A DNA stretch of 64,000 nt. Origin: Eubacteriales bacterium. Its GTDB lineage: Bacteria; Bacillota; Clostridia; Lachnospirales; Lachnospiraceae. Shown in pieces: positions 1,494 to 64,000 of this stretch (positions are counted from its first letter, which is position 1; the number at the start of each line of letters is the position of its first letter). The translations under genes and the position numbers were made by a program. The notes under the pieces are model-generated. The model had not been told where the DNA came from. It saw only the letters and a list, made by a program, of their open reading frames with translations, and made no database searches. The stretch spans positions 29,156-93,155 of the forward strand of contig JAZHVT010000003.1 of assembly GCA_036453145.1 (NCBI GenBank), read 5' to 3'.

Positions 1494-1516
1494 GCAAACG
1501 AAAGGCATTGATAGAC

Positions 1517-3286: not shown

Positions 3287-3289
3287 TCC

Positions 3290-4660: not shown

Positions 4661-4666
4661 CTACGA

Positions 4667-4797: not shown

Positions 4798-4819
4798 AGA
4801 ACCCTAAAGGAGAGTAATC

Positions 4820-16195: not shown

Positions 16196-16277
16196 ATCTG
16201 ACAGTTTTCTTTTTCATAATTTCCTTTTTTTCTCCTTCCGGGAGGCCTCTGCGGCAAGGCAGGGACCTCCCACTTTT

Positions 16278-16404
16278 TTCAGCACCGGACTTGGAACGCC
16301 TTGCGTTCCGAGATTATTACTATTTTTGCAGGATATCATACCGCTATGGTAAAATGAATTTGTTCGGCGAGGGACGCAACGCATTCCGGGTCCTGGCGCT
16401 GAAC
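16278..16404. repeat. REP-like family A inverted pair bracketing the exoA promoter
   Basis: TTCAGCACCGGACTTGGAACGCCTTGCGTTCC (16278-309) and the reverse complement of 16371-404 both resemble GTTCAGCACTCCGGACGCGGAACACTTCGCGTTCCC at 19686; promoter TTGCAG-18-TAAAAT (extended -10) lies between them. Confidence 0.6.
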
Positions 16405-16438
16405 GGCTGCAAATGAAATATGGATAGGAGGAGCAGGG

Positions 16439-17191: not shown

Positions 17192-17329
17192 TATGGCTAT
17201 AACCCCACAGGCTTGCCCGTGGGTGCAGAAGAATACAGGGATATGTCTGGTACGCAAGGAATCTTATGGTACCGGACCTGTATGGCGAATTTGCACGAAG
17301 GCGCGTCTGCGTCTGGAAAGGAAAATGAA

Positions 17330-21282: not shown

Positions 21283-21295
21283 GAAGGGAGAGGGT

Positions 21296-24200
21296 ATGGC
21301 GCTTACACTTTATACAGGCGGTTCCAGGGCCGGCAAGACGCACGCGGTCTTCGAACGCATCATCAGAGAGTCCATGCAGGAGCCGGGCAGGCGCTTTATC
21401 GTCATTGTCCCGGAGCAGTTTACGATGCAGACACAGAAAATGCTGGTCCGCCAGCATCCGCGCCACGGCATTCTCAATATCGATGTGCTCTCATTTAACA
21501 GACTGGCCTACCGCGTCTTTGCGGAGACCGGTGAGGAGAGCGAGGAGCTGCTCGAGGAGATCGGAAAGACATTCATTCTTGAGAAGATCGCGCTCGACAT
21601 GAAGAAAAAGCTTCCCTATTACGGGGCGACGCTGGCCAGGCCGCAGAATCTCGCCGAGATGAAGGCGCTGATCTCTGAGCTGATGCTGTACGATGTCACG
21701 CCGGAGCAGCTGGCCGGTGCGGTGACGGAGGAGGAGAGAGCAAAGAACAGTCCGTTCGCCATGAAAATTTCGGACACGGCAAATGTCTACTCCGAGTTCA
21801 GAAAGCGTCTTGCGGGAACGTACATGACGGCCGAGGAGGTGCCGGACCGCCTGGTCGACATCGTCGACCGGTCGGCGCTTGTCCGTGACTCCGTGGTCGC
21901 GCTCGACGGGTTTACGGGCTTTACACCGGTCCAGCTGAAGCTGATCGGAAAGCTGATGGACCTCGTGAAGGACATGTATGTGACGGTCACGCTGGACAGA
22001 TATGAGCAGCCGTTCGGACCTTATCGGAAGACAGGGCTCTTTGCGCTCAGTCACACGACGACGCAGGCGCTTAAGAAGCTCGCGGAGGAGCACCACGTGC
22101 AGGTGATGAGGCCTGTGTTCATTTCTGAAAATGAGCACAGCCGCCACGCGGATTCACCCGAGCTGCAGTTTCTCGAGGAGTCCTTATTCCGTGACAGGCA
22201 CCGCGGACACTGGCAGGGAGATCCGCATGATATCCGTGTATTTGCGGCGCAGAACCCGCGAAAGGAGATCGAGGAGGCTGCATTTGAGATCAGCCGCATG
22301 GTGCGCGAGGAGGGATACAGGTACCGCGATATTGCGGTCGTGACCGGGGATCTCGCCTCGTACGGCGATTATGTGCGGCAGGTCTTTTCGGAGTGGAAGA
22401 TCCCGTATTTCCTTGATCAGAAGCGGGCGCTTGTCAGCAATCCGTTCATCGAGTATCTGCGTGCCGCGATGCAGGCCTGTGCGGAGGATTACTCCTATGA
22501 GGGCATATTCCGCATGCTGAAGAGCGGAATGACGGATTTTACGTCTGATGAGATCGAGCATCTGGAGAACTATGTCATCGGCTGCGGAATCCGCGGCAAG
22601 AAGAAATGGCGGACGAAATTCATCCGGAGCTATCAGGGCGAGGACCCCGGAGAGGTTCCGATGCTCGATGCGGTGCGTGTGCGGCTTCTGGAGCTCATGG
22701 ACCCGCTCGCGGACGCGTTCGGGCGCCGCGGCGGGACCGTGCGCGAGAAGTCGGAGGCTGTCTATGATTTCTGCGTCCGGACCCATGCGGAGGAAAAGCT
22801 GCGCGCGAGGACGAAATGGTTTGAGGCAAATGGCCGGCCGGATCTTGCCAGAGAGTATGATCAGGTCTATCCGTATGTCTGCAATTTTCTTGATAAGCTG
22901 ACGGCTGTTCTCGGCGATGAGAAGATCTCGATGAAGAATTACCGGGCGCTCCTTGAGGCAGGCTTTGCGGAGGCGCGTGTCGCGATCATTCCGCCCGGAG
23001 CTGATCAGGTCATGGTCGGCGATGTTGAGAGAAGCCGGATCGGGGACGTGAAGGTCCTGTTCTTTGCAGGCGTCAATGAGGGCGTGATTCCGAAGCCGGT
23101 GAAGGGCGGAGGCGCGCTGAATGACGCGGACCGCGGTACACTCGGGGAGAGAAGCATCACACTGAAGCCGACTGCGCGTGAAAATCTCTATATCGAGCGG
23201 TTCTATCTCTACATGACGCTCGCGAAGCCTTCCCGGAGGCTCATTCTGATGTACAGCGCGGCTAATATGGCAGGTGAGATCATGAAGCCGGCCTATCTGA
23301 TCAGTGCTGTCAGACGCCTGTTTCCGAAGCTTCCGGAGGGACATGTCCTGACCGATATCAGACAGCGCTTCGAGCGGCCGGAGACGGGCGTGCGCCTCGT
23401 CACGGAGGGACTTGAGACAATTGACTCGAAGCCACTGACACCGGAATTCCTCGAGCTCTTCTCGTGGTATAAGCGCCAGCCGGCGTACGCTCGGAAGATG
23501 GATATCCTTCTTGAGGCGGCGGGCAGGAGGAAGCCGAAGGACTGCATCGGGCAGGCGGCTGCGGAGGCACTGTACGGCAGAAATCTGCACAATTCTGCGT
23601 CGCGTCTTGAGAAATTCTGCGCATGCAGGTTTGCTCATTTTCTGCAGTACGGGCTCAGGCTGAAGGAGCGGCCCGAATTTCTGTTCAATCCGATGGATCT
23701 CGGAACGGTCATGCACCGGTCGCTGGAGCTCTTTGCGGATTCAGCCGGATCGGACGGGGAGACCTGGCAGCGCCTCGCCGGGGATAATGCCATGAGAAAC
23801 GGCCGCGCGTCTGACAGCATGCGCCAGGCCGTCGCCGAGAGTGGGAGCGACGTGCTTCACGACACGGCCAGAAATGAGTATCAGATCAGACGCATGGAGC
23901 GGCTGATGTCTGCGACGGCGTGGGCACAGACGGAGCAGATCGTGGCGGGGGATTTCCTTCCGGCCGGGATGGAGACCGTATTTTCCGGAAATGAAGACCT
24001 TGAATCTGCGCGCATCAGGCTTCCGGGAGGGGCTGAGCTCACACTGACGGGCCGGATCGACCGGATCGATATCTGCGACGAGGACGGCGTGACGCTTGTC
24101 CGCGTCATTGACTATAAGACCGGAAGAAAGGAGTTCAGCCTGCGGGACGTCTACTACGGACTGCAGCTGCAGCTCGTCATTTACATGGAGGCGGCTCTCG

Positions 24201-24739
24201 AGCTGTTGAGAAAGCGGGGAAAGCACCCGGTACCGGCGGGCATCTTCTACTACCGGGTCATGGACCCCGTCGTCGCGTACCAGCCGGGAGAGACGACGGA
24301 TGAGCTGGCGAAGCGGATTCTGAAGGAGCTCATTCCGTCAGGCATTGTGATCGGCGACGAAAAGACGGCAGAGCATTTTGACCGCGCGCTGAAGGAGAGC
24401 GGGGCCGGATCGGATGTCGTGGCGGTAAGGAGAACAAAAAACGGAATCGCAAAGAACTCGCACCTGATATCTGCCGGTGACTACGGGACGGTCAGCTCCT
24501 ATGTCCGGCGGAAGGTGATGGATGCGGGCTGCGCGATTCTTTCGGGAAGTGCGGAGATCAATCCGTACGCGACGGCCGATCTCAAGGACACGGCGTGCAG
24601 GTTCTGTGAGTACAGGGGAATCTGCGGCTTTGACCGGCGGATACCGGGATATCAGTACCGTCTGATCGATAAACTGAGCCAGGACGATGCGGTTCTCAGG
24701 ATGGAGGAGGATGACGATGGCGATCAGCTGGACAAATGA
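21296..24739 (+). CDS. addB: Helicase-nuclease subunit AddB
   Basis: Degenerate Walker A GGSRAGKT, IVPEQFT, VVALDGF, nuclease GRIDRID..IDYKTG, Fe-S cysteines (C..CRF; CRFCEYRGIC). Confidence 0.93.
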   Translation: MALTLYTGGSRAGKTHAVFERIIRESMQEPGRRFIVIVPEQFTMQTQKMLVRQHPRHGILNIDVLSFNRLAYRVFAETGEESEELLEEIGKTFILEKIALDMKKKLPYYGATLARPQNLAEMKALISELMLYDVTPEQLAGAVTEEERAKNSPFAMKISDTANVYSEFRKRLAGTYMTAEEVPDRLVDIVDRSALVRDSVVALDGFTGFTPVQLKLIGKLMDLVKDMYVTVTLDRYEQPFGPYRKTGLFALSHTTTQALKKLAEEHHVQVMRPVFISENEHSRHADSPELQFLEESLFRDRHRGHWQGDPHDIRVFAAQNPRKEIEEAAFEISRMVREEGYRYRDIAVVTGDLASYGDYVRQVFSEWKIPYFLDQKRALVSNPFIEYLRAAMQACAEDYSYEGIFRMLKSGMTDFTSDEIEHLENYVIGCGIRGKKKWRTKFIRSYQGEDPGEVPMLDAVRVRLLELMDPLADAFGRRGGTVREKSEAVYDFCVRTHAEEKLRARTKWFEANGRPDLAREYDQVYPYVCNFLDKLTAVLGDEKISMKNYRALLEAGFAEARVAIIPPGADQVMVGDVERSRIGDVKVLFFAGVNEGVIPKPVKGGGALNDADRGTLGERSITLKPTARENLYIERFYLYMTLAKPSRRLILMYSAANMAGEIMKPAYLISAVRRLFPKLPEGHVLTDIRQRFERPETGVRLVTEGLETIDSKPLTPEFLELFSWYKRQPAYARKMDILLEAAGRRKPKDCIGQAAAEALYGRNLHNSASRLEKFCACRFAHFLQYGLRLKERPEFLFNPMDLGTVMHRSLELFADSAGSDGETWQRLAGDNAMRNGRASDSMRQAVAESGSDVLHDTARNEYQIRRMERLMSATAWAQTEQIVAGDFLPAGMETVFSGNEDLESARIRLPGGAELTLTGRIDRIDICDEDGVTLVRVIDYKTGRKEFSLRDVYYGLQLQLVIYMEAALELLRKRGKHPVPAGIFYYRVMDPVVAYQPGETTDELAKRILKELIPSGIVIGDEKTAEHFDRALKESGAGSDVVAVRRTKNGIAKNSHLISAGDYGTVSSYVRRKVMDAGCAILSGSAEINPYATADLKDTACRFCEYRGICGFDRRIPGYQYRLIDKLSQDDAVLRMEEDDDGDQLDK

Positions 24740-27700
24740 GCAGAAGTCGGTAATTCATACCCGCGGAAAAAATATCCTTGTCTCAGCGGCAGCGGGATCA
24801 GGCAAGACCGCGGTGCTCGTGGAGCGGATCATGTCCAGAATCACGAGTGATACGGACCCCGTCTCGATCGATGAGCTGCTGATTGTGACATTCACGAAGG
24901 CGGCAGCCGGAGAAATGAGGACCCGTATTCTAAGCCGGCTTGAGGATGCGGCGGAGCAGGACCCGGACAATGCGTACCTCGCGGACCAGGTCCGCCGTGT
25001 CGGCGGCGCTCAGATCACGACAATCGACGGCTTCTGCTCCTATGTTATTCGGAATTACGGCCAGTCCATCGGACTTGCGCCCGGCTTTCGCGTCGCGGAG
25101 GAGGGCGAGACAAAGCTGATGAAGAAGGATGCCGTGTCGGCTGTCCTCGAGGAGGCGTATGCGTCGGCTGATCCCGATGAACAGGAGAGATTCGGTGCAT
25201 TTGTCGAGACATTCGCGACAGGCAAGACAGATGCGTCTCTTGAAGACCTGATACTCCGCGTCTTCGAGGCCGCAGAGAGCAGTCCGGACCCGCAGGGCTG
25301 GCTTGAGCACTGCCACCATGAAAATGAAGCCTCCTCACCGGAGACGCTCCTTCAGACAGACTGGATGGGCATGTTCCGGGAGGCGGCGGAGGAGAACGCG
25401 GAGATGGCGCATTCCCTCGCGGAAAAGAACGCGGAGCTTGCGCACAGCCCGGAGGGACCGTCAGCCTACATTCCGACGGGAGATGCGTATGCAAGGCTCA
25501 CGGAGCATGTCCTCGCGGCCATTCGCGGCGACGACTTCTACCGGAAGACCCGCCTTGCGCTCTATGATACGGAGATTCCGCCTCTTGGCCGGAAGAAGCC
25601 GGCGGAGGGCGAGAATCCGGACCTCCGGGACACGTTCAAGGAGACGAGGGACGCTGTCAAGAAGATCATCGATGAGCTTAAGGAGCAGTACTTCTTCCTG
25701 CCTCCGGATGACGCGGCCGCAAGCCTCCGCGACGGAGCCGGTCCGCTCGATATGCTGCTCGATCTTGCGGAGCGCATGAGGGACCGCTACGCCGAGATGA
25801 AGGAGGAGAAGAATATTCTCGATTTCAGCGACCTTGAGCACAATGCGCTGCAGATTCTCAGGAAGGACGGCGAGCGGACATATGCGGCGCGCGAGCTCGC
25901 AGGGCAGTACCGGGAGGTCATGATCGACGAGTACCAGGACAGCAACTATCTGCAGGAGGCAATCCTCACGGCAGTGAGCCGGATTGAGGACGGCGAGCCC
26001 GACTATTTCTGCGTCGGCGATGTGAAGCAGAGCATCTACAGCTTCCGCCAGGCGCGGCCTAAGCTGTTTATGGAGAAATACCACAGCTACAAGGGAGGGA
26101 CAGAGAACGGGGTCAGGATCGATCTCCACCGGAACTTCAGGAGCCGGCGCGAGGTTGTCGATACGGTCAACGGCATCTTCCGGCAGATTATGCGGATCGA
26201 GGTCGGCGGTGTCGATTATGACGATGACGCGGCCCTTGTGAAGGGGGCAGTCTTCGCCGATACGGACGAACATCAGGCAGAGGATGCTGCGGCCGATTAC
26301 AGAACGGAGATCATGCCTGTCTTCACAAATGAGGACGCAGATCTCATGGACGATGCGGGATCGGCGTCTGCGAGGGAGCTTGAGGCGAGAGCTGTCGGAA
26401 CAAGAATCCGCCGGATGGTAGGCCATGAGAAGCTTCTCGACCAGAAGACAGGGGAACTCCGGCCCGTTCGATATGAGGATATTGTAATTCTTCTCCGGAC
26501 GACGGCGGAGTGGAGCGATGTGTTTATGCGCGTCCTCGACGGCATGCATATTCCCTGCTATACGTCGTCAAAGGAGGGCTATTTCGGCGCGATCGAGGTT
26601 GTGACTGTTCTCAATTATCTGCGGATTATCGACAATCCGCAGCAGGACATTCCGTTCACGGCTGTCCTCACATCGGCATTTGCGGGGCTTGAGGCGGAGG
26701 ACCTCGCGCGCGTCCGCGCAAGAGACGGGGCTGCGTCCTATTCCGGCAGCACGGAGCGGGCGAATGTCTCGATGTACGACGCTGCGCGCTTTTACGCCCT
26801 GCACGGAGAGGAGCCTGCACTCCGTGCAAGGCTTGAGGATTTCTTTGCATTTTTTGACAGCGTCCGCGCATCTGTGCATGACACGCCGCTTCATGAGCTG
26901 ATCGACAGAGTCATCACGGAGTCCGGCTTTGGCGAATATGCGGCGGCCCTTCCGGGCGGTCTGCAGAGGACAGTGAACCTCCGCATGCTGGTTGACAAGG
27001 CGATCGCGTTTGAGCACACGAGCTATATCGGCCTGTTTAACTTCGTCCGCTACATCGAGAACCTGCAGAAGGAAAATGTCGATTTCGGCGAGCTGAGCAC
27101 GATTACGGAGCATGAGGATGTCGTGAGAATCTACAGCATCCACAAGAGCAAGGGACTTGAATATCCCGTTGTCTTCGTGTGCGGCATGGGCAAGAAATTC
27201 AACACGCGCGAGCTGAAGGCCACTGTCCTGATTCATCCGGAGATGGGAGTCGCGTCTGATTACGTCGATTTCAGGCACCGCGTGAGAGTGCCGACGCTTA
27301 AGAAATGTGCCGTGAAGCAGCGGCTGCTCCGCGACAGGATCGGAGAGGAGCTGCGGGTCCTCTATGTTGCGCTCACGCGTGCGAAGCAGAAGCTGATCCT
27401 CACAGGCTCTCTGAAAAATGAGGAGAGCTTTGAGCACCTCTCATCGGATCTTCCGCTGTCAGAGCCGAAGCTCTCAGCCGGCTTTATTGTGCGGGCCGGT
27501 ACGTTCTGGGACTGGGTCATTCCGGCGGCGAAACGGATGCTGGATGCGGAGACCAGGGCAGGTCTTGCGCAGATGACGCCTGAGGAGAGAGAAAAAATGC
27601 TGATGCATGACGGAGGAAGAAGGCTCTCCGGGTCCTGCCTTGTCTTTACACCTGTCCGGCCGTCGGACCTCGCGGCGGACGAGGTTGATACGCAGGTGCG

Positions 27701-28739
27701 CCGGGCGGACGCGCTCACGGCTCTCGGAAGCGTGCGGTCGGCCCGGATCTATGACGCGGACATGCGCACTCTGATTAGCGAGAGGGCCTCCTGGACCTAT
27801 CCGTTTGCTGGCAGCGAGACGATTCCGGTCGAGGTCTCCGTCTCGGAGCTGAAGACCGGCCGCTACTCGGACAAGGACGAGGAATTTGCGGAAAATGACG
27901 ATATGGCCCGGCTCTATCCGGAGCCGGAGGACGAGGAGCCGACAGTGCCGGAGTTTATCCGGCAGCGGGATATGAGGCTGGCCGCCGCGGAAGCAGAAAT
28001 GCCTGGAGAGACAGCCGGCTCTGGAAAGAAGAAAACGTCAGGTGCAGCTGCACCGGTATCTGCAGAATCGGTTGCCGGTTCGCGGCGGAGCGTTTCGGGA
28101 GCAGCGGCGTCCGGCTCCACGCGCGGAACCGCATACCACAGAGTCATGCAGCTGATCTCATTTGCGGAGGCAGCTGCGGGCGGCGGAGAGACCGCGGCGT
28201 CCGCAGACCCAGGGACAACGGGCAGTGGAGAGCAGATCTCTTCTGCGGGTTCGAGGCCGGGAAGAGCTGAAGGGACAACTGACCGGGACAGAGTGTACCG
28301 GAATATTCTTGAACAGCTTGGAAAGCTGGAGAAGTCCGGAAAGATCAGTGCGGAGGAGGCCGGCCTCGTTGATCTGCGGCGCGTCGCGTCGATGGCGGCA
28401 AGTCCGATGGGAAGACGGATGGCAGAGGCCGAGAGGAGAGGTGATTTGTACAGAGAGCAGCCCTTCGTTCTCGGAGTCGCCGCGTCTGAAATCCGGAGTG
28501 AGTGGCCGGACGATGAGATGATCTTTGTACAGGGAATCATCGATGCATTCTTCTACGAGGAGGACGGAATCGTTCTGCTTGATTACAAGACGGACCGCGT
28601 GCGGAATCCGGAGGAGCTGGCAGACCGGTACCGCGTGCAGCTCACGCAGTACCGTGAGGCCCTTGAGCGCGTGACCGGCAAAGACGTGAAGGAGACATAT
28701 ATCTGGTCCTTCCGCCTCGGGCGGGCCATACTAATGTAA
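24717..28739 (+). CDS. addA: Helicase-nuclease subunit AddA
   Basis: SAAAGSGKT, TFTKAAA, IDEYQD, VGDVKQSIYSFR, HKSKGLEYP, YVALTRAK, QGIID..LLDYKT; ATG 24717 after GGAGGAGG. Confidence 0.95.
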   Translation: MAISWTNEQKSVIHTRGKNILVSAAAGSGKTAVLVERIMSRITSDTDPVSIDELLIVTFTKAAAGEMRTRILSRLEDAAEQDPDNAYLADQVRRVGGAQITTIDGFCSYVIRNYGQSIGLAPGFRVAEEGETKLMKKDAVSAVLEEAYASADPDEQERFGAFVETFATGKTDASLEDLILRVFEAAESSPDPQGWLEHCHHENEASSPETLLQTDWMGMFREAAEENAEMAHSLAEKNAELAHSPEGPSAYIPTGDAYARLTEHVLAAIRGDDFYRKTRLALYDTEIPPLGRKKPAEGENPDLRDTFKETRDAVKKIIDELKEQYFFLPPDDAAASLRDGAGPLDMLLDLAERMRDRYAEMKEEKNILDFSDLEHNALQILRKDGERTYAARELAGQYREVMIDEYQDSNYLQEAILTAVSRIEDGEPDYFCVGDVKQSIYSFRQARPKLFMEKYHSYKGGTENGVRIDLHRNFRSRREVVDTVNGIFRQIMRIEVGGVDYDDDAALVKGAVFADTDEHQAEDAAADYRTEIMPVFTNEDADLMDDAGSASARELEARAVGTRIRRMVGHEKLLDQKTGELRPVRYEDIVILLRTTAEWSDVFMRVLDGMHIPCYTSSKEGYFGAIEVVTVLNYLRIIDNPQQDIPFTAVLTSAFAGLEAEDLARVRARDGAASYSGSTERANVSMYDAARFYALHGEEPALRARLEDFFAFFDSVRASVHDTPLHELIDRVITESGFGEYAAALPGGLQRTVNLRMLVDKAIAFEHTSYIGLFNFVRYIENLQKENVDFGELSTITEHEDVVRIYSIHKSKGLEYPVVFVCGMGKKFNTRELKATVLIHPEMGVASDYVDFRHRVRVPTLKKCAVKQRLLRDRIGEELRVLYVALTRAKQKLILTGSLKNEESFEHLSSDLPLSEPKLSAGFIVRAGTFWDWVIPAAKRMLDAETRAGLAQMTPEEREKMLMHDGGRRLSGSCLVFTPVRPSDLAADEVDTQVRRADALTALGSVRSARIYDADMRTLISERASWTYPFAGSETIPVEVSVSELKTGRYSDKDEEFAENDDMARLYPEPEDEEPTVPEFIRQRDMRLAAAEAEMPGETAGSGKKKTSGAAAPVSAESVAGSRRSVSGAAASGSTRGTAYHRVMQLISFAEAAAGGGETAASADPGTTGSGEQISSAGSRPGRAEGTTDRDRVYRNILEQLGKLEKSGKISAEEAGLVDLRRVASMAASPMGRRMAEAERRGDLYREQPFVLGVAASEIRSEWPDDEMIFVQGIIDAFFYEEDGIVLLDYKTDRVRNPEELADRYRVQLTQYREALERVTGKDVKETYIWSFRLGRAILM

Positions 28740-29088: not shown

Positions 29089-30229
29089 TTGGTAGAGTTA
29101 GATCCGATCAAGCTTGAACTGAATTCCTACGACCAGCCATTAGTTGAAATGAGGGACTCACTTTGACCTCGCTGTCAAAGAGAAGCGAATCCAGGAATTA
29201 AACAGAGAAATGGAAGATCCTCATTTCTGGGACAATCCGGATGAGGCGACAAAGAAGCAGAGACTTCTCGGAAATCTGAAGAACGATGTGGAGACGTACA
29301 ACAAGCTTGTCTCCGATCACGACGATATCCGGGACATGATCGAGATGGCCGACGAAGAGCCGGATCCGTCTATCGTTCCGGAGGTCGAGGAGATGTTCGA
29401 GGATTTCAAGAACAAATTCGAGACGCTCCGCATGAAGACACTGCTCTCCGGCGAGTATGACGAATGCAACGCAATCGTCACGCTTCACGCGGGCACGGGC
29501 GGAACAGAGGCCATGGACTGGACGAGCATGCTTTACCGCATGTACTCGAGGTGGGCGGAGTCCCACGGCTTCCAGGTTGAGGTCCTTGACAGCCTTGACG
29601 GCGACGAGGCGGGCCTGAAGTCTATCACGTTCCAGGTAAACGGCGAGAATGCGTACGGTCTTCTGAAGTCCGAGCACGGTGTACACCGGCTCGTCCGCAT
29701 CAGCCCGTTCAACGCGAACGGCAAGAGACAGACTTCATTTTCCGCATGCGAGGTCATGCCGGACATCGAGGAGGACATCGATATCGAAATTGATCCGAAG
29801 GATATCCGGATTGATACATACCGCTCATCCGGTGCCGGCGGCCAGCATATCAACAAGACATCGTCGGCAATCCGCATCACGCATTTCCCGACGGGAATTG
29901 TCGTCACATGCCAGAATGAGCGCTCGCAGTTCCAGAACAAGGACAAGGCGTTCCAGGAGCTGAAGATCAAGCTGTTCATGCTGAAGCAGCAGGAAAATGC
30001 GGAGAAGCTCGATGATATCCGCGGCAAGGTCACGGACATCGCCTGGGGCAACCAGATCCGCTCGTATTTCCTTCAGCCGTATCAGCTGATCAAGGATCTG
30101 CGGACGGGCGAAGAGCAGACCAATGCACAGAAGGTGCTCGATGGCGGCATCGATCCGTTCATCAATGCGTACCTCAAGTGGATTGCTCTTGGCAATAAGG
30201 ATCAGAAGGACAAGACGGAAGCGAGATAA
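29089..30229 (+). CDS. prfB: Peptide chain release factor 2, with programmed +1 frameshift
   Basis: TTG 29089 after GAGGGTGA gives 25 codons to CTT TGA C (29161-67) preceded by internal SD AGGG; the +1 frame joins ORF 29210-30229 carrying the SPF anticodon mimic and GAGGQ. Confidence 0.97.
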
Positions 30230-38946: not shown

Positions 38947-39921
38947 GTGGCAGATTATTCAATGTTCAAGCAGCAGTTCAAGGGGTTTGACAGGGACGAG
39001 GTCCTCAGCTATATCCATCAGAAGGAAGAGGAGATGGCTGCGAAGGAGGAATCTCTGAAGCAGGAGATCAGCAAGCGCGACAAGATCATTTCAGAGCTGA
39101 AGACGCGCATCATCCTGAAGGACGATCAGGTTGAGCAGCTGAGAGCTGAGATCGACACGAAGTACAAGAAATATATCGACACATACAGCCAGATCAGCGA
39201 TCTCGCTTACGAAGCAAAGATGAGGGGAGAACAGCTTGTAAACGACGCGACGGTCAAGGCAAACAAGATGCGCACGGATGCGGAAAATGAGGCCAGAGCA
39301 AAGGTCGACACCGCGAGCGCGCAGGCTGAGAAGACCATGAGCGACGCGGACGCAAAGGCGCAGACGACTGTGAAGGATGCGGACGCGAAGGCAAAGCAGA
39401 CGGTCGAAGAGGCGGATTCACGCGCAAAGCTTACGCTTGATGACGCAAACCGCAAGGCACAGAAGAAGCTCGACGATGCGGATGCAGAGGCAAAGCGCCG
39501 TGTTGCCTCTGTCGAGAGCGTCATTGACGCAAAGCTGACGGACGGCAGAAAGCGCTACAGCGCAGTCCATGATGAGATGAACGATATTGTCCGGATGTTC
39601 AACCAGATCCAGAGAAAGTTCATGCAGTCCTATAAGGAGGTCCATGAGATTATCAACAGCATGCCGGAGGCATTTGACGATGCGGAGCTGAGTGATGAGG
39701 ATGAGCTGGACGACGAGAACGATGACGAGCTTCAGGCGATCAGCTCAGGCTTCAGCCTGGATGACCTCGACGAGGAGGCGGATGAGCTCGATCTGGATGA
39801 TGACAGCGACGATGAGAACAATACTGACACAAAGCGCGGGGACGCGGATGATGATGACAAGCCGTCACCTGACAATGACAGCAAGACGATTGATATCACG
39901 TCCATCGGCGCTGCGAACTGA
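38947..39921 (+). CDS. DivIVA-like coiled-coil protein with acidic tail
   Basis: FKQQFKGFDRDEVLSYI (DivIVA-type N-terminus), 11-residue A..KA repeats, Asp/Glu-rich C-terminus; GTG after AAAGGAG. Confidence 0.7.
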   Translation: MADYSMFKQQFKGFDRDEVLSYIHQKEEEMAAKEESLKQEISKRDKIISELKTRIILKDDQVEQLRAEIDTKYKKYIDTYSQISDLAYEAKMRGEQLVNDATVKANKMRTDAENEARAKVDTASAQAEKTMSDADAKAQTTVKDADAKAKQTVEEADSRAKLTLDDANRKAQKKLDDADAEAKRRVASVESVIDAKLTDGRKRYSAVHDEMNDIVRMFNQIQRKFMQSYKEVHEIINSMPEAFDDAELSDEDELDDENDDELQAISSGFSLDDLDEEADELDLDDDSDDENNTDTKRGDADDDDKPSPDNDSKTIDITSIGAAN

Positions 39922-57531: not shown

Positions 57532-58206
57532 ATGAAGGACAAGTCACTGGCAAATAACAGTTATCTGACAATACAGACGCTGCAGCGCATGCCTTATTAT
57601 CTGCAGTATCTGAAGAAGGCGAAGGCTGAGGGGCGGACCGATGTATCGGCATCGGCGATTGCCGCGGAGCTCCAGCTCAATGATGTGCTTGTGCGCAAGG
57701 ATATTGCGGCAGTAAGCTCGACAGGCGGAAGACCGAAGGCCGGCTTCAACGTCTGCACACTGATCCGGGACATCGAGCAGTACATGGGTTACCATACGAC
57801 GAAGGAAACCGTTCTCGTCGGGGCCGGGTCTCTTGGCAAGGCCCTGCTCCGAAACCGGGAGTTTGATATGTACGGGCTGAAGATTGTAGCAGCCTTCGAT
57901 GTCCGTAGGAGTCTGATCCACAAGAAAATCAACGGAGTAGAGGTCTATTCGCTTGCAAAGCTCAAGAATTTCTGCCTTCGCCAGAATATACAGATCGGAA
58001 TCATCACGGTGCCGGCAGAGGCCGCGCAGGACGTGGCAAACCGGCTCGTAGACGGCGGCATACAGGCAATCTGGAACTTTGCGTTCGTGAAGCTGCAGGT
58101 GCCGGACCACGTTCTTGTACAGAATGAAGATCTCGCGTCCTCACTTGCGATGCTGTCGCAGCATCTGCGTCTTGCGAACGAGATGGGAGAGAGCTGGATC
58201 GAGTGA
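57532..58206 (+). CDS. rex: Redox-sensing transcriptional repressor Rex (divergent paralogue-like)
   Basis: TLQRMPYYL, VRKDI, Rossmann GAGSLG, IWNFA; start uncertain (57514 or 57532). Confidence 0.88.
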   Translation: MKDKSLANNSYLTIQTLQRMPYYLQYLKKAKAEGRTDVSASAIAAELQLNDVLVRKDIAAVSSTGGRPKAGFNVCTLIRDIEQYMGYHTTKETVLVGAGSLGKALLRNREFDMYGLKIVAAFDVRRSLIHKKINGVEVYSLAKLKNFCLRQNIQIGIITVPAEAAQDVANRLVDGGIQAIWNFAFVKLQVPDHVLVQNEDLASSLAMLSQHLRLANEMGESWIE

Positions 58207-58380: not shown

Positions 58381-58447
58381 ATCGATATTACGATATCGAT
58401 ATTTTCACAGGTTTGCCTTGTTTAACTAAAAGCGGTTGTGCTATTCT
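58381..58447 (+). promoter_or_regulatory. Palindromic operator candidate and fumC promoter
   Basis: ATCGATAT-TACG-ATATCGAT (58381-400); TTGTTT-18-TATTCT with extended TG. Confidence 0.5.
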
Positions 58448-58544: not shown

Positions 58545-59921
58545 ATGGACTATCGCTTAGAGCATGATTCACTCGGAGAGGTAAAGGTGCCGGCAGATAA
58601 GTACTGGGGTGCCCAGACCGAGCGCAGCCACGAAAATTTCAGAATCGGCGTCGGCATTGAGACAATGCCCCGTGAGATCACACACGCCTTCGGCATCCTG
58701 AAGAAGGCGGCGGCACAGGCCAATCACAGCCTGAAGCCGGAGAAGATGACGGACGAGAAGCTCGCCGCGATCTCGAAGGCATGCGATGAGGTTATTTCCG
58801 GAGAGCTGAACGACAACTTCCCGCTCGTCGTATGGCAGACAGGCTCGGGCACACAGTCCAATATGAACACGAACGAGGTCATTGCGAACCGCGCAAATGA
58901 GATTGCGGGCAAGAAGCTCTGCCATCCGAATGATGATGTCAATATGAGCCAGTCCTCGAACGATACATTCCCGACGGCCATGCACATCGCAGCTGTCATC
59001 GCTCTCGAGGACAAGCTGCTCCCGTCCGCGGAGGCACTTATTGATGCGTTCAAGAAGCTTGAGGCTGAAAATGAGGGCATCGTCAAGTCAGGCCGTACAC
59101 ATCTTCAGGACGCTGTTCCGATCAGGTTCTCACAGGAGATCAGCGGCTGGAGATCTTCTCTTGAGAAGGACGTTGAGCTTGTGAAGCTCGCGCTGAAGCC
59201 GCTCAAGGCTCTGGCACTCGGCGGCACGGCTGTCGGCACAGGCCTCAATGCGCCGGAGGGCTTTGCAAAGCTCGTTGCTGAAAGAGTTTCCGCTCTGACA
59301 GGCAAGGATTTCTACACGGCGGAGAACAAGTTCCACGCGCTGACATCCAAGGATGAAATCGTATTTGCGCACGGCGCTGTCAAGGCAATGGCCTGCGATA
59401 TGATGAAGATCGCTAATGACGTCCGCTGGCTTGCATCCGGCCCGCGTCTCGGTCTCGGTGAGATCACAATCCCTGCCAATGAGCCGGGCTCCTCGATCAT
59501 GCCGGGCAAGGTCAATCCGACACAGTGCGAGCAGGTCACGATGGTTGCTGTTCAGGTTATCGGCAACGATGTCGCCGTCGGTATGGCGGCATCCCAGGGC
59601 AACTTCGAGCTGAATGTGTTCATGCCGGTCATGGCATATAACTTCCTGCAGTCCTGCCGTCTCCTCGCCGAGTCCATGACATCGTTCAAGGACAAGTGCG
59701 TTGTCGGCATCAAGGCAAACAAGCAGAAGATGCATGACAATCTCCACAACTCACTGATGCTTGTCACAGCCCTCAACCCGTACATCGGATATGAGAAGGC
59801 TGCAAAGACATCTCAGCTGGCATTCAAGGAGAACATCTCCCTCAAGGAGGCGTGCGTGAAGCTCGGCTTCCTGACACCGGAAAAATTTGATGAGGTTTTC
59901 CATCCGGAAAACATGGCGTAA
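58545..59921 (+). CDS. fumC: Class II fumarate hydratase
   Basis: WQTGSGTQSNMN, SQSSND, GRTHLQDA, signature GSSIMPGKVNPTQCE; SD GAGGAG. Confidence 0.96.
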   Translation: MDYRLEHDSLGEVKVPADKYWGAQTERSHENFRIGVGIETMPREITHAFGILKKAAAQANHSLKPEKMTDEKLAAISKACDEVISGELNDNFPLVVWQTGSGTQSNMNTNEVIANRANEIAGKKLCHPNDDVNMSQSSNDTFPTAMHIAAVIALEDKLLPSAEALIDAFKKLEAENEGIVKSGRTHLQDAVPIRFSQEISGWRSSLEKDVELVKLALKPLKALALGGTAVGTGLNAPEGFAKLVAERVSALTGKDFYTAENKFHALTSKDEIVFAHGAVKAMACDMMKIANDVRWLASGPRLGLGEITIPANEPGSSIMPGKVNPTQCEQVTMVAVQVIGNDVAVGMAASQGNFELNVFMPVMAYNFLQSCRLLAESMTSFKDKCVVGIKANKQKMHDNLHNSLMLVTALNPYIGYEKAAKTSQLAFKENISLKEACVKLGFLTPEKFDEVFHPENMA

Positions 59922-59927
59922 GACCTG

Positions 59928-59966
59928 GCCGGACGCCGCGGGACTGATCCGGCGGCGCCGGCTTTA
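59928..59966 (+). terminator. Hairpin with weak U-tract after fumC
   Basis: GCCGGACGCCG...CGGCGCCGGC followed only by TTTATT. Confidence 0.5.
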
Positions 59967-60053
59967 TTACATAGAGAACCCCGTATCATGCGCTGCATGA
60001 CATGCGTTCTATATACATACAAGACAACCAAATTGTAGAAAGGAAATCAAACT

Positions 60054-60848
60054 ATGGTCTACAGTTATTTTCCAGGCTGCACTTTGAAGAACAAAGCCAA
60101 GGACCTGGACGCATACGGACGTGCGGCCGCGAAGGCACTCGGTGCTGAGCTGGAAGAAATTCCGGAATGGCAGTGCTGCGGCGGCGTATATCCGCTGAGC
60201 CACGACGAGATTGCAATCAAGCTTTCGTCTGTCCGTGCCCTCGCGTCCGCAAGAGACGCCGGACATGACCTTGTTACCATCTGCTCCGCGTGCCACAACG
60301 TGATCAAGCGGGTAAATGACGACATGGCGAATGACGAGTATGTCTCGACACGCGCTAACAACTATCTCAAGGCAGACGGCATTGAGTATCACGGTGAGAC
60401 GCGCGTTATTCATTTCCTGGAGCTGCTTCGCGATGATATCGGCTACGACAAGGTCAAGGCGGCTGTCAAGAATCCGCTGAAGGGCCAGAAGATCGGTGCG
60501 TACTACGGATGTCTTCTGCTTCGTCCGTCACAGGTTATGGCGATGGACAATGCCGAGAATCCGACCATCATTGAGGACCTGATCAAGGCAGTGGGCGCAA
60601 CACCGGTTGTTTACGCACAGCGCAATGAGTGCTGCGGAGCGTACCTCACGATGGAGGACAGCTCTGTTCCGGAAAAGCGCGTGAAGTCGATTCTTGAAAA
60701 TGCGAAGGCTAACGGTGCCGACACGGTTGTCACAGCGTGCCCGCTCTGCTACTACAATCTGAAGAAGCATTCCGAAGGCACGGGCGTCACCGTGAGATAT
60801 TTCACGGAAGTTCTTGCCGAGGCTCTCGGCGTAAAGGAGGAAATGTAA
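60054..60848 (+). CDS. hdrB: Heterodisulfide reductase subunit B-like (two CCG domains)
   Basis: YFPGC..WQCCGG..TICSAC and YYGCL..ECCGA..TACPLC. Confidence 0.92.
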   Translation: MVYSYFPGCTLKNKAKDLDAYGRAAAKALGAELEEIPEWQCCGGVYPLSHDEIAIKLSSVRALASARDAGHDLVTICSACHNVIKRVNDDMANDEYVSTRANNYLKADGIEYHGETRVIHFLELLRDDIGYDKVKAAVKNPLKGQKIGAYYGCLLLRPSQVMAMDNAENPTIIEDLIKAVGATPVVYAQRNECCGAYLTMEDSSVPEKRVKSILENAKANGADTVVTACPLCYYNLKKHSEGTGVTVRYFTEVLAEALGVKEEM

Positions 60849-61240
60849 TGGCCTCTAATTACGAAGTTACGAAAGACGAAATTCTGGCGATCAGCGGTGT
60901 CAACCCGCTCAAGTGCATGCAGTGCGGCAAGTGCTCCGGCACATGCCCGGCTTATGACGAGATGGAATACCATCCGAACCAGTTCGTCCTCATGGTCGAG
61001 CGCGGTGAGATCGACAAGCTCATGGCATCGAAGTCCATTTACAAATGCATGTCCTGCATGGCCTGCATCGAGAGATGCCCGCGCCAGGTTGAGCCCGCGA
61101 AGCTCGTTGAGGCGATCCGCCTCGCAGTGATCCGCAAGCAGGGGCAGAACCATCTCATTCCGGACGATGTTCCGGCAAAGCTTGATCCGGATCTGCCGCA
61201 GCAGGCACTGGTCAGCGCATTCCGCAAGTATACAAAGTAA
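60848..61240 (+). CDS. hdrC: Heterodisulfide reductase subunit C-like (2x[4Fe-4S])
   Basis: CMQCGKCSGTCP and CMSCMACIERCP; TAATG coupling to hdrB. Confidence 0.9.
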   Translation: MASNYEVTKDEILAISGVNPLKCMQCGKCSGTCPAYDEMEYHPNQFVLMVERGEIDKLMASKSIYKCMSCMACIERCPRQVEPAKLVEAIRLAVIRKQGQNHLIPDDVPAKLDPDLPQQALVSAFRKYTK

Positions 61241-61252
61241 AGGAGAAATACA

Positions 61253-63259
61253 ATGCAAAGAATTGGCGTATTTGTCTGCCATTGCGGTACGAACATTGCG
61301 GCGACAGTTGATGTCAAGGCAGTGGCCAAGGCAATGGAAAAAGAGCCGGGTGTGGTTTTCTCCACGGATTACACATATATGTGCTCCGAGGCCGGACAGA
61401 CACTGGTTCAGGATTCCATCAAGAAGTATGGCCTGACAGGTGTTGTCATCTGCTCCTGCTCTCCGCATATGCATGAGCTGACATTCCAGAAGGCTATCGC
61501 AAAGGCCGGTCTGAACCCGTACATGCTCGAAATCGCGAACATCCGTGAGCAGTGCTCCTGGGTCACGAAGGATATCAAGGTTGCGACGGAGAAGGCTATT
61601 GTCCTTGCCCGCGCAGCAGTCGCTAAGGTTGTTCTGAACAGCCCGCTGACATCCGGTACGACACAGGTCACGAAGAGAGCTCTTGTCATCGGCGGCGGTA
61701 TCGCCGGCATGCAGACGGCACTCGATATTGCAGAGGCCGGCTTCAAGGTTGACCTCGTCGAGAAGAACCCGTCAATCGGCGGCAAGATGGCTCAGCTCGA
61801 CAAGACATTCCCGACGCTTGACTGCGCATCCTGCATCGTCACACCGAAGATGGTTGATGTCGGCCAGAACGAGAATATTCGTATTCTTTCCTATTCGGAA
61901 GTCTCAGAGGTCAGTGGCTTCGTCGGAAACTTCGACGTGAAGATCAAGCGCAAGGCGCGCTACGTCGATGAGGACAAGTGCACGGGCTGCGGTGCCTGCA
62001 CAGAGAAATGTCCGATGAAGAAGATCCCGAACGAGTTCAACCACGACCTGAACAACAGGTCCTGCATTTACATCCCGTTCGCACAGGCTGTCCCGAAGGT
62101 CGCGACAATCGATCCGAGATACTGCCTCATGCTGAACAAGGGCAAGTGCGGTATCTGCTCCAAGGTCTGCCAGGCCGGCGCCATCAACTACAAGGCGAAG
62201 GACGAGTACCTCGAGGAGAAGTACGGCGCAATCGTCGTTGCGACAGGCTATGAGCAGATCAAGGTTGACAAGTATGATGAGTACGCATACTCCCAGAGTC
62301 CGGATGTCGTCACATCCCTCGAGTATGAGCGTCTCATGAACGCGGCAGGACCGACGAACGGTCATCTGCTCCGCCCGTCTGACGGCAAGGAGCCGAAGAA
62401 GATCGTCTGGATTCAGTGCGTGGGCTCCCGTGAGACCTGCGATCCGACCAAGGGTCCGGCAAGAGGTAAGCCGTACTGCTCCAAGGTCTGCTGCATGTAC
62501 ACGGCAAAGCAGGCGATCCTCACCAAGGACCACTATCCGGATACAGACCTCTACGTCTTCTACATCGATGTCCGTACACCGGGCAAGAACTTCGATGAGT
62601 TCTACCGCCGCGCGGTTGAGCAGTACAACGTCCACTACATCAAGGGCCAGGTCGGCAAGGTCACTCCTGAGAACGGCAAGCTGATGGTTCAGGGCTCTGA
62701 TCTTCTTCTCGGTGAACAGGTCCATATCGAGGCGGATATGGTTGTCCTCTCCGCTGCCATTGAGCCGAGCCCGACGGCAAGACCGCTCGCGACAATGCTC
62801 ACGACGCAGATGGATACGAACGACTTCTTTACAGAGGCCCATCCGAAGCTTCGTCCGGTCGAGTCAGCGACAGCAGGTATCTTTCTTTCAGGTATGTGCC
62901 AGGGACCGAAGGATATCCCGGAGACAGTTGCACAGGCTTCCGCGGCAGCGGCAAAGGTCATCGGTCTCCTCTGCAAGAAGGAACTGAAGAACAACGCGTG
63001 CGTCGCTCATCCGAATGAGATGATGTGCAACGGCTGCTCACAGTGCCAGGGTGTCTGCCCGTACGGCGCGATCACATACGTTGAGAAGGAATTCAGAATG
63101 CCGGATCGCACGACGAAGGTTCGCCGCGTCGCTCAGGTCAATGAGGCCGTCTGCCAGGGCTGCGGTGCCTGCACGGTTACCTGCCCGTCCGGAGCTATGG
63201 ACCTCAGAGGCTTCTCGAACCAGGAAATCATGGCGGAGGTAGATGCAATATGTCAGTAA
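61253..63259 (+). CDS. hdrA: Heterodisulfide reductase subunit A-like flavoprotein
   Basis: GVFVCHCG, NIREQCSW, GGGIAG, KTFPTLDC, inserted ferredoxin domain, IQCVGSR, YCSKVCCM, C-terminal ferredoxin. Confidence 0.95.
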   Translation: MQRIGVFVCHCGTNIAATVDVKAVAKAMEKEPGVVFSTDYTYMCSEAGQTLVQDSIKKYGLTGVVICSCSPHMHELTFQKAIAKAGLNPYMLEIANIREQCSWVTKDIKVATEKAIVLARAAVAKVVLNSPLTSGTTQVTKRALVIGGGIAGMQTALDIAEAGFKVDLVEKNPSIGGKMAQLDKTFPTLDCASCIVTPKMVDVGQNENIRILSYSEVSEVSGFVGNFDVKIKRKARYVDEDKCTGCGACTEKCPMKKIPNEFNHDLNNRSCIYIPFAQAVPKVATIDPRYCLMLNKGKCGICSKVCQAGAINYKAKDEYLEEKYGAIVVATGYEQIKVDKYDEYAYSQSPDVVTSLEYERLMNAAGPTNGHLLRPSDGKEPKKIVWIQCVGSRETCDPTKGPARGKPYCSKVCCMYTAKQAILTKDHYPDTDLYVFYIDVRTPGKNFDEFYRRAVEQYNVHYIKGQVGKVTPENGKLMVQGSDLLLGEQVHIEADMVVLSAAIEPSPTARPLATMLTTQMDTNDFFTEAHPKLRPVESATAGIFLSGMCQGPKDIPETVAQASAAAAKVIGLLCKKELKNNACVAHPNEMMCNGCSQCQGVCPYGAITYVEKEFRMPDRTTKVRRVAQVNEAVCQGCGACTVTCPSGAMDLRGFSNQEIMAEVDAICQ

Positions 63260-63696
63260 ATGAAAACAAAGAGTGGAAGCCGCTGATCGTGGCGTTCTGC
63301 TGCAACTGGTGCTCTTATTCCGGTGCTGACACGGCCGGCAACAACCGCGCGTCCTACCCGGATAACGTCAAGATCATCCGCGTTCCGTGCTCCTGCCGTA
63401 TCAACCCGCTGTTTATCCTGAGAGCGTTCCAGAGAGGCGCTGACGGCGTCCTTGTCATGGGCTGCCATCCGGGTGACTGCCATTACACAACGGGAAATTA
63501 TCATACAAGACGGCGTATGACCCTTCTGTTCTCTATGCTGAATTACCTCGGCGTCGAGAGCGCGCGCACCCGCGTTGAGTGGGTATCCGCTGCAGAGGGT
63601 GCAAGATTTGCCGAGGTCGTCACGGATTTCACGAAGACGATCGAGGAGCTTGGTGAAAATCGCAGACTGGAGGATTTGAGATGCAAGACGAACTGA
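63250..63696 (+). CDS. flxD: MvhD/FlxD-type [2Fe-2S] subunit
   Basis: AFCCNWCSY, RVPCSCR, GCHPGDCHY. Confidence 0.9.
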   Translation: MSVNENKEWKPLIVAFCCNWCSYSGADTAGNNRASYPDNVKIIRVPCSCRINPLFILRAFQRGADGVLVMGCHPGDCHYTTGNYHTRRRMTLLFSMLNYLGVESARTRVEWVSAAEGARFAEVVTDFTKTIEELGENRRLEDLRCKTN

Positions 63697-64000
63697 TAAG
63701 GCGTGCCTGTGAGCTTCTTGAGGATGGTACGGTAAATCGGGTACTCGGCTGGCAGAAGGGCCAGTTCGTGTACGACATCACACCGGCTGTCTTCACGAGC
63801 GTAGAGGAAGTCAAGAATAATTTCGTTTACAATGATTTCTGCGGCGCAAACCTGTCCAAGTATCTGCGCTCGGAATCTGAGAAGGAGGGCAAGGTCCTCG
63901 TTTTCCTGAAGCCGTGCGATACATACAGCTTCAACCAGCTGCTCACGGAGTACAAGATCCACCGCGACAATGTGTATGCGGTCGGTATCGAGTGCTACGG
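63681..64000 (+). CDS. FlxC-like Fe-S protein, N-terminal part (truncated by window end)
   Basis: ATG 63681 after GGAGGA: MQDELIRRACELLEDGTVNRVLGWQKG...CGANLSKYL...FLKPCDTYSFNQLL; follows flxD as in hdr-flx clusters. Confidence 0.75.
   Translation, partial: MQDELIRRACELLEDGTVNRVLGWQKGQFVYDITPAVFTSVEEVKNNFVYNDFCGANLSKYLRSESEKEGKVLVFLKPCDTYSFNQLLTEYKIHRDNVYAVGIECY

Follow-up and report, generated by a model that had tools for sequence, protein, structure and literature searches.

The closest described counterpart of the gene cluster considered here is the 'succinate operon' of Pseudoclostridium thermosuccinogenes, in which a gene for fumarate hydratase is followed by seven for Flx-Hdr, two for fumarate reductase and one for a putative succinate transporter (PMC7282089). 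The operon is co-regulated and about 4-fold up at low CO2 (PMC7282089), and a coupling of fumarate reduction to ferredoxin reduction has been explicitly proposed for this bacterium (2019 preprint, Koendjbiharie & van Kranenburg; 2020 paper, PMC7282089). In tubeworm symbionts and Thioflavicoccus, tfrAB genes are interspersed with flxABCD-hdrABC in gene clusters of the reductive tricarboxylic acid (rTCA) cycle (PMC6315080), and a 2024 preprint describes HdrA as associated with Sdh/Frd in Firmicutes. Beyond the P. thermosuccinogenes and tubeworm-symbiont proposals, no biochemical proof of a bifurcating fumarate reductase was found in the literature searched, and the PDB holds classical complex II only, with no solved structure of this fumarate reductase. 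Here we describe a cluster of the same kind at the end of a 64,000-nucleotide (nt) stretch of DNA from a Eubacteriales bacterium (assembly GCA_036453145.1, contig JAZHVT010000003.1, positions 29,156 to 93,155), the whole of which is called the window below. The window ends two-thirds of the way through a ten-gene operon, fumC-hdrBCA-flxDCBA-frdBA, which encodes the two reactions that complete the reductive branch to succinate. The operon probably joins the fumarase FumC, a bifurcating Hdr-Flx module fed by reduced nicotinamide adenine dinucleotide (NADH), and a soluble fumarate reductase, FrdBA, with direct electron transfer from HdrBC to FrdBA.

Gene content of the operon

The genes of the operon that lie within the window are listed below, with flavin adenine dinucleotide abbreviated as FAD and iron-sulfur as Fe-S.

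58545-59921, + strand: fumC, full-length class II fumarate hydratase (malate <-> fumarate); TIGR00979, 702 bits against a cut-off of 664.75; domains Lyase_1 (PF00206) and FumaraseC_C (PF10415); ribosome-binding site GAGGAG before the ATG at 58545
60054-60848, + strand: hdrB-like gene, two CCG domains (PF02754 twice) with two predicted non-cubane [4Fe-4S] sites
60848-61240, + strand: hdrC-like gene, 2x[4Fe-4S] ferredoxin subunit; Fer4_8/Fer4_17; TIGR03290 61 bits, below its cut-off
61253-63259, + strand: hdrA, full-length FAD/Fe-S subunit; NF040770 (HdrA2) 783 bits over model positions 1-641
63250-63696, + strand: flxD/mvhD, MvhD-like [2Fe-2S] connector; PF02662 (FlpD), E-value 4.4e-55
63681-64000, + strand: flxC, 5' part only, the gene running off the window end; assigned by identity to the complete flxC on related contigs

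The E-values of these matches, that of flxD for example, are far beyond chance. The fumC product is a class II fumarase, scoring above the curated cut-off of the equivalog model and carrying both domains. Downstream of it the frames are closely coupled, with overlaps of 1 nt between hdrB and hdrC, 10 nt between hdrA and flxD and 16 nt between flxD and flxC, and a gap of 12 nt between hdrC and hdrA. The spacer between fumC and hdrB measures 132 nt.

Sequence past position 64000 was read from six rumen/gut metagenome contigs (L001-L006, one of them 1.56 Mb), which were found by exact-sequence look-up of the MvhD-like protein and are essentially identical to the window here. The truncated open reading frame (ORF) at 63681-64000 has no family match by itself; with 100% identity it matches the N-terminus of a 324-amino-acid Fe-S protein on these contigs (L002:10432-11406). 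There the rest of flxC is followed by flxB, flxA, a spacer of about 330 nt, frdB and frdA. The window and the six contigs together therefore carry the 'succinate operon' block from fumarate hydratase through the seven flx-hdr genes to the pair for fumarate reductase.

The Hdr subunits make up HdrABC as that complex is defined, HdrA having the FAD fold and Fe-S cysteine motifs, HdrC two [4Fe-4S] clusters and HdrB two CCG motifs. Both HdrB motifs are intact (motif 1, C9..C41C42G..C77xxC80; motif 2, C153..C193C194G..C229xxC232), and all 10 cysteines are invariant in 55 of 55 relatives. Against methanogen HdrB (8rvv_B) the protein scores 137 bits, and it matches the CoB_CoM_SS_B and MFR_anch_SdhE models about equally well (155 and 153 bits, both below cut-off). 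HdrC carries two CX2CX2CX3C motifs whose 8 cysteines are the same in 52/52 relatives. HdrA, the subunit that performs bifurcation in methanogen Hdr, aligns over its full length (residues 3-666) with methanogen HdrA (8rvu_a/5odc_A, 670 bits), and 55-57 of 57 relatives share its cluster cysteines. All 8 cysteines of FlxD are likewise invariant (60/60 relatives).

The Flx subunits were mostly read on the six contigs. Complete FlxC contains a Fer4_8 dicluster, and its N-terminal part is weakly AsrA-like. FlxB (342 amino acids) matches Fer4_22 and, among families, ShyB (172 bits) and HydB (153 bits), the beta subunits of Pyrococcus sulfhydrogenases, with AsrA also among the best. FlxA (275 amino acids) combines NAD_binding_1 with DHODB_Fe-S_bind and scores 204 bits with AsrB, 180 with HydG and 163 with ShyC. 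According to PMC10084766, Flx subunits are homologues of Pyrococcus soluble-hydrogenase subunits without the catalytic subunit, and the match profile of FlxA, FlxB and FlxC fits this published definition. An NAD(P)H/FAD/2Fe-2S FlxA, Fe-S proteins FlxB and FlxC and an MvhD-like FlxD are thus all present.

Conservation and transcription of the gene block

A search with FrdA, one genome per species, returned at least 586 related stretches, and the 80 best loci were analysed. A protein-cluster search of the FrdA family returned at least 8000 clusters, with hosts taken from the 80-120 closest relatives. Enough upstream sequence was available at 51 of the 80 loci, and in 50 of these all ten genes, fumC-hdrB-hdrC-hdrA-flxD-flxC-flxB-flxA-frdB-frdA, stand in the same order and on the same strand. 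The sole exception, L032, has unrelated genes where fumC would stand. Spacing in the relatives is tight, the fumC-hdrB gap having a median of about 27 nt and the end of flxA lying about 10 nt from the start of frdB, which makes the long spacers seen in the lineage of the window a local peculiarity.

The block extends further in most relatives. Immediately upstream of fumC, 43 of 46 relatives have a gene of the lactate dehydrogenase (LDH) family, which bears an arginine at the LDH Gln102 position (GVARKPGQSR), the signature of LDH-like malate dehydrogenases. Immediately downstream of frdA, a transporter of the AspT/YidE/YbjL family (PF06826) is present in 50/67 relatives. This family includes the Corynebacterium succinate exporter SucE. 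With mdh upstream and the transporter downstream in most relatives, the ancestral block is therefore mdh-fumC-hdrBCA-flxDCBA-frdBA-transporter and leads from oxaloacetate to exported succinate. The window lineage has rex on the upstream side and neither the transporter nor mdh adjacent to the block.

Named hosts comprise Lachnospiraceae, Oscillospiraceae, Acutalibacteraceae, Ruminococcus, Christensenellales-like bacteria, Treponema and Pyramidobacter (the homologues of the last being proteins P0058-P0060). The whole cluster also occurs, at 70-75% protein identity, in bins attributed to other phyla, namely a Bacteroides uniformis bin (L070) and Treponema metagenome-assembled genomes (L042, L055 and L062); this points to horizontal transfer, or to mis-binning in the case of the Bacteroides bin L070. 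Overall, the system is real, coherent and widespread.

One structure stands out in the spacer between fumC and hdrB.

59927-59963, + strand: GC-rich hairpin with a weak U-tract; -33.2 kcal/mol, z -3.1

The hairpin is followed by the T-poor tail CTTTATTACA, and a promoter scan found no promoter-like site on the + strand of the spacer. In strains L001 and L006 it is retained with altered bases and a tail still poorer in T; in L008 and most relatives it is not found, making it specific to the lineage. Its likely role is that of a leaky terminator or of an mRNA stabiliser. Bovine rumen metatranscriptome contigs, matching 59600-61065 and 59402-61587 with 95-99% identity, start inside fumC and continue across the spacer into hdrB, hdrC and hdrA. 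These contigs support read-through of the hairpin and constitute moderate evidence for it.

Much of this layout had been anticipated by a first-pass annotation of the window. The annotation had recognised fumC, hdrB with both CCG sites intact, hdrC, hdrA, flxD/mvhD and the 5' end of flxC at 58545-64000, and these are all in place, in frames that overlap or nearly abut. The fumC-hdrB hairpin with weak U-tract and no promoter bears out as described above. Where the annotation looked to flxB, flxA and a soluble TfrAB/SdhAB-like pair past 64000, the six contigs carry flxCBA and then frdB and frdA, and the linkage of fumC to Hdr-Flx that it proposed is borne out both by the collinear loci and by the rumen transcript contigs crossing the junction.

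The spacer between flxA and frdB (L002:13259-13607, just past the window end), about 330 nt long against about 10 nt in relatives, has a peculiarity of its own. It contains a 43-nt tandem repeat in 2.5 copies (GGCCGCTTGCGGCCGAGCCTGGCCAGAGGACACCAAATCCAAC), with a GC hairpin in every copy, and the array is bounded by the direct repeat GAAGTGCGGCTGGGCTGGATGC. The spacer length varies among strains L001, L003 and L006, which suggests copy-number variation of the repeat. Within the 64-kb window the 43-nt repeat does not occur.

Fumarate reductase subunits

Public records name the two terminal proteins merely 'FAD-dependent oxidoreductase' or '2Fe-2S protein'. FrdA (540 amino acids) has TfrA as its best family (358 bits against a TfrA cut-off of 718), followed by SdhA/FrdA (286) and NadB (282), all below equivalog cut-offs. 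Its active-site residues, placed by alignment to 3p4p_A/1kf6_A, are those of a fumarate reductase flavoprotein in both dicarboxylate binding and catalysis, with His232, Thr244, Glu245, Arg248, Arg287, His355 and Arg390 (E. coli numbering) invariant in 80/80 relatives. The covalent-FAD histidine of E. coli, His44, corresponds to Asn127 in FrdA, and the relatives have Asn in 79 of 80 cases. Members of the SdhA/FrdA family with non-covalent FAD reduce fumarate and oxidise succinate poorly, and they are not succinate dehydrogenases; Asn at this position is accordingly what is expected for a one-way fumarate reductase. Pfam did not detect Succ_DH_flav_C (PF02910) in FrdA, and the family models stop at about position 426 of about 546-600. 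With neither that domain nor the covalent-FAD histidine, FrdA is not of the respiratory complex II type.

The predicted fold of FrdA is closest to E. coli FrdA (1kf6_A; template modelling score about 0.6), in an AlphaFold model of moderate quality (predicted local distance difference test score, 72) that served for fold class only. A conserved N-terminal extension of 90 residues is confidently modelled and contains no cysteine. No conserved cysteine pair was found in FrdA, the best candidate being a lone C370 in 74/80 relatives.

FrdB (224-230 amino acids) has 12 invariant cysteines, arranged as CX4CX2C..C and two complete CX2CX2CX3C motifs and all used by three ordinary clusters, one 2Fe-2S and two 4Fe-4S. 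Its match to TfrB/SdhB is confined to their N-terminal part (positions 19-148 of the TfrB model), and Pfam found no CCG domain (PF02754) in it. The pair is therefore not a TfrAB, in which the SdhB-like part of TfrB is fused to two CCG domains; a TfrB-like fusion length is also seen in none of the 150 best FrdB relatives. One natural protein, P0223 (727 amino acids), fuses FrdB (residues 3-212) to the flavoprotein (FAD_binding_2, 293-674), which supports FrdB and FrdA working as a single unit.

Two other identities for FrdA were considered and rejected. For an adenosine 5'-phosphosulfate (APS) reductase, by analogy with AprAB-Qmo, the 25 best NCBIfam matches listed include no AprA family. Both APS reductase and L-aspartate oxidase are opposed by the SdhB-like partner, by the FrdB-FrdA fusion and by the fumC, mdh and dicarboxylate-type transporter genes in the operon.

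Proposed mechanism and alternatives

Taken together, the subunits suggest the following route. FumC would dehydrate malate to fumarate, and NADH would be oxidised at FlxA (FAD, NAD-binding, 2Fe-2S), from which electrons would travel through the Fe-S clusters of FlxB and FlxC to the 2Fe-2S cluster of FlxD and on to the HdrA flavin. This flavin would split each pair, sending one electron uphill through the ferredoxin-like domains of HdrA to ferredoxin (Fd). The other would move downhill by way of HdrC and both CCG clusters in HdrB to FrdB, with its 2Fe-2S and two 4Fe-4S clusters, and from there to the non-covalent FAD of FrdA, where fumarate would be reduced to succinate. The net reaction would be 2 NADH + Fd(ox) + fumarate -> 2 NAD+ + Fd(red) + succinate, the reduced ferredoxin then passing to Rnf or hydrogenase. 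Fumarate reduction could in this way conserve energy without quinones or a membrane anchor. The potentials are about -320 mV for NADH, about +30 mV for fumarate/succinate and about -400 to -500 mV for ferredoxin. With these textbook values the overall bifurcating reaction would be clearly exergonic, the exergonic branch readily paying for the endergonic one.

From the motifs and the linkage we infer that Hdr-Flx and FrdBA would form one complex, that the HdrA flavin would bifurcate in this system, and that HdrB would hand electrons directly to FrdB with no soluble thiol/disulfide couple in between. Such an organisation resembles a split TfrAB or type-E SdhABE whose CCG subunit is shared with the HdrA-Flx module. 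More tentatively, FrdBA may be docked on HdrBC with the CCG clusters as a relay, in which case the assembly might be the first flavin-based bifurcating enzyme with fumarate as its high-potential acceptor and might sustain a soluble fumarate respiration across gut and rumen Clostridia.

The route that the first-pass annotation had favoured contains a disulfide, regenerated by a thiol:fumarate reductase-like enzyme. FrdBA would then oxidise a dithiol, and Flx-Hdr would re-reduce the disulfide at HdrB with NADH while reducing ferredoxin. Such a shuttle could draw on the two CCG motifs of HdrB, which form the disulfide-reducing site of methanogen Hdr, on the standing of methanogen TfrA as the best family of FrdA, on the published Flx-Hdr model with a DsrC disulfide as acceptor (PMC10084766), and on the wording 'ferredoxin (and thiols)' in the P. 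thermosuccinogenes paper (PMC7282089). Yet TfrAB oxidises thiols at the CCG domain of TfrB, which Pfam does not find in FrdB; the three ordinary Fe-S clusters account for every invariant FrdB cysteine; FrdA offers C370 alone rather than a cysteine pair; the length of a FrdB-CCG fusion is reached by 0/150 of the best relatives; and no gene for a thiol carrier or thiol biosynthesis belongs to the conserved block of 10-12 genes. A free FrdBA would thus have no recognisable thiol-oxidising site, CCG being confined to HdrB, and since HdrB also scores nearly equally with the HdrB and SdhE models, direct transfer from HdrBC to FrdB ranks above a disulfide shuttle and is the more parsimonious route. 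We therefore regard the shuttle as unlikely. Of the earlier interpretation, the gene content and the malate-fumarate-succinate pathway stand, while the disulfide intermediate is doubtful and the implied novelty falls, as set out at the end of this text.

Electrons might also run from NADH, or from NADH plus reduced ferredoxin, through Flx and Hdr to FrdBA as along a simple wire, with no ferredoxin reduced and no energy conserved. The transfer from NADH to fumarate is exergonic by itself, HdrA-family proteins are generally known from non-bifurcating contexts too, and ferredoxin reduction is here deduced from sequence. Against a wire, the full-length HdrA keeps every cluster cysteine of the bifurcating methanogen enzyme, those of both ferredoxin-like domains included, and seven redox subunits are kept in more than 50 species although a single flavoprotein could catalyse the reaction. 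In P. thermosuccinogenes, moreover, H2 abolishes succinate formation, which its authors read as ferredoxin coupling (PMC7282089). A wire seems to us about as improbable as the thiol shuttle. Far less probable is operation in reverse, with succinate oxidised to fumarate and reduced ferredoxin helping to reduce NAD+ (confurcation) in a succinate-consuming metabolism. Flx-Hdr of Desulfovibrio has been proposed to be reversible, according to PMC10084766, but Asn replaces the covalent-FAD His in nearly every FrdA (79/80), the cultured Chordicoccus species excretes succinate, and the partners in the operon are malate dehydrogenase, fumarase and an exporter-type transporter. Finally, Hdr-Flx could serve an unrelated acceptor such as a DsrC-like protein, with fumC and frdBA as merely adjacent genes. 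The long spacers at both junctions of the window lineage (132 nt and about 330 nt) would suit coincidental neighbours; the collinearity of the ten genes in 50/51 species, mostly with 10-30 nt spacers and from Lachnospiraceae to Treponema and Pyramidobacter, and the transcript contigs that traverse the fumC-hdrB junction speak against them. By synteny this explanation is close to refuted.

Several points weigh against a bifurcating complex with direct HdrBC-FrdBA transfer as well. Both CCG sites of HdrB are fully intact, as a true disulfide reductase would also need. The transcript contigs are assemblies with no strand information and possible DNA carry-over. The spacers of the window lineage are long, with a repeat array between flxA and frdBA and a strong hairpin between fumC and hdrB, so that separate transcription units are possible there. 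No enzymology of the operon's complex or of any homologous complex was found in the literature searched, and no solved bacterial Flx-Hdr structure was found in the PDB, where only methanogen Hdr and classical complex II were matched. On balance, direct transfer within an NADH-fed bifurcating system is the explanation we hold to be probable.

Possible regulatory elements upstream of fumC

Further features precede the operon.

57532-58206, + strand: rex, redox-sensing repressor Rex, the neighbour of the operon; NCBIfam NF003994, 272 bits against a cut-off of 130
58381-58400, + strand: perfect 8+4+8 palindrome ATCGATAT-TACG-ATATCGAT upstream of fumC, read from the sequence
58418-58447, + strand: putative promoter-like element, TTGTTT, an 18-nt spacer and an extended -10 TGcTATTCT, read from the sequence

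The palindrome is kept as ATCGATATTACGGTATCGAT in relative L007 and is a candidate operator, though not a Rex box. The promoter-like element has a counterpart in the same relative (TTGTTTAAC...TGTGCTATAGT) and was not called by a strict consensus scan. With up to 2 mismatches allowed, the Rex operator TTGTNAANNNNTTNACAA has 2 chance-level matches in the window, none near fumC, and the looser pattern TGTNA-N6-8-TNACA, sought upstream of fumC at 53 loci, matches in L039 only. A TGTTA-N6-TAACA box stands before mdh in 4/39 relatives. A Rex homologue adjoins the cluster downstream in about 12-14 relatives (L021, L024, L040, L043, L045, L049, L051, L065, L068, L078, L080 and L086 among them). Rex is a possible NADH/NAD+-responsive regulator of the operon. 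Its control appears plausible in some relatives; for the window, the scans did not find the canonical box upstream of fumC.

Host organism and remainder of the window

The host is, to judge by its proteins, a rumen Chordicoccus (Lachnospiraceae). The exact FrdA shares a 90%-identity cluster with WP_274939757.1 from Chordicoccus furentiruminis, and an exact match of FlxB carries the name Chordicoccus sp. The first-pass annotation had named succinate production as a check, and it is seen at the level of the genus, succinic acid being the major fermentation product of C. furentiruminis, a steer isolate, according to Gaffney et al. 2023 as cited in PMC11889851.

The remainder of the window is ordinary chromosome, with genes for a branched-chain amino acid transporter, tRNA synthetases, aspartate kinase and amylase. 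Genes for subunits C/AC39, A, B and D of a V/A-type ATPase, an ion-gradient-linked type, lie at 200-5485, and the AddB/AddA helicase-nuclease pair (1160 and 1350 amino acids), ordinary recombination genes, at 21257-28739. The release factor 2 gene has the classical programmed +1 frameshift site CTT TGA C at 29161-29167, upstream of the ORF at 29210-30229, and its PCRF/RF-1 domains continue in the next frame after the site. Three ORFs have no Pfam match at E <= 1e-10, namely 5466-8054 (862 amino acids), 16214-17257 on the - strand (347 amino acids) and 38947-39921 (324 amino acids); that on the - strand may be spurious.

Significance

Succinate is the main propionate precursor in the rumen and gut and provides a hydrogen sink alternative to methane. 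If the proposal is true, many abundant Clostridia form succinate without menaquinone or a membrane fumarate reductase and gain reduced ferredoxin in doing so. The adenosine triphosphate (ATP) and H2 balance of these bacteria would then change, and likewise their treatment in rumen redox models. Bacterial Flx-Hdr outside the sulfate reducers would have a physiological high-potential acceptor, and a soluble, energy-conserving 'fumarate respiration', acting through ferredoxin and Rnf or hydrogenase, would extend to hundreds of quinone-free gut and rumen Clostridia, some Treponema and Pyramidobacter. The family is large, with FrdA relatives in at least 586 of the species-representative genomes scanned. 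The cultured host C. furentiruminis makes the proposal directly testable.

Comparison with known systems

The methanogen system of TfrAB with MvhAGD-HdrABC resembles the operon in its parts. TfrA is the best match of FrdA, FrdB is akin to the N-terminal 2Fe-2S/4Fe-4S part of TfrB, and the methanogen HdrABC and MvhD have close counterparts here, with 670 bits for HdrA. Methanogen TfrB, however, has its own CCG domains and oxidises CoM-SH and CoB-SH, whereas FrdB has none and CCG is found in HdrB only. The hydrogenase is absent from the cluster, NADH would enter by FlxABC, and the scores lie below the TfrA and TfrB equivalog cut-offs. The type E succinate:quinone oxidoreductases, with Campylobacter MfrABE, pair SdhA and SdhB with an HdrB-like double-CCG subunit and have no thiol substrate, and so they provide a precedent for direct electron transfer from an HdrB-type to an SdhB-type protein. 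They differ in being membrane-associated and quinone-linked, with no HdrA/Flx module. The window proteins score far below the cut-offs of this group (NF042965, 153 bits against 500), and its membrane subunit is absent from the cluster.

Among bacteria, FlxABCD-HdrABC of Desulfovibrio vulgaris (Ramos et al. 2015, as summarised in PMC10084766) has the same seven subunit types, with NADH as donor and ferredoxin as low-potential acceptor, both as proposed. By the same summary, its high-potential acceptor is the DsrC disulfide and its genes lie beside an alcohol dehydrogenase, in a different gene order; here the order is hdrBCA-flxDCBA, and the partners are fumC and frdBA in a fermenter. The tubeworm symbionts likewise link a Tfr-like fumarate reductase to Flx-Hdr, and their authors propose a direct electron-shuttling complex (PMC6315080). 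Likened to the operon by description, these are autotrophic Gammaproteobacteria whose clusters include kor genes (PMC6315080).

The nearest system is that of P. thermosuccinogenes, which shares gene content, gene order and the proposal of NADH-driven bifurcation, the likeness being drawn from the paper's description of CDQ83_RS03320-03365. Where that operon has its putative succinate transporter, relatives of the window have a transporter of the AspT/YidE type, and the window lineage has rex upstream and no adjacent transporter or mdh. The host here is a mesophilic rumen Lachnospiraceae, there a thermophilic member of the Hungateiclostridiaceae. The system is therefore not new as an idea, having been proposed in print for another bacterium, and the novelty implied by the first-pass annotation does not hold, given the same operon and bifurcation idea for P. 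thermosuccinogenes (PMC7282089) and the linkage of tfrAB to flx-hdr (PMC6315080). The present analysis adds how widely and how strictly the block is conserved among rumen and gut bacteria, its mdh and transporter partners, the change of His to Asn in FrdA, and an FrdBA with no thiol-oxidising module.

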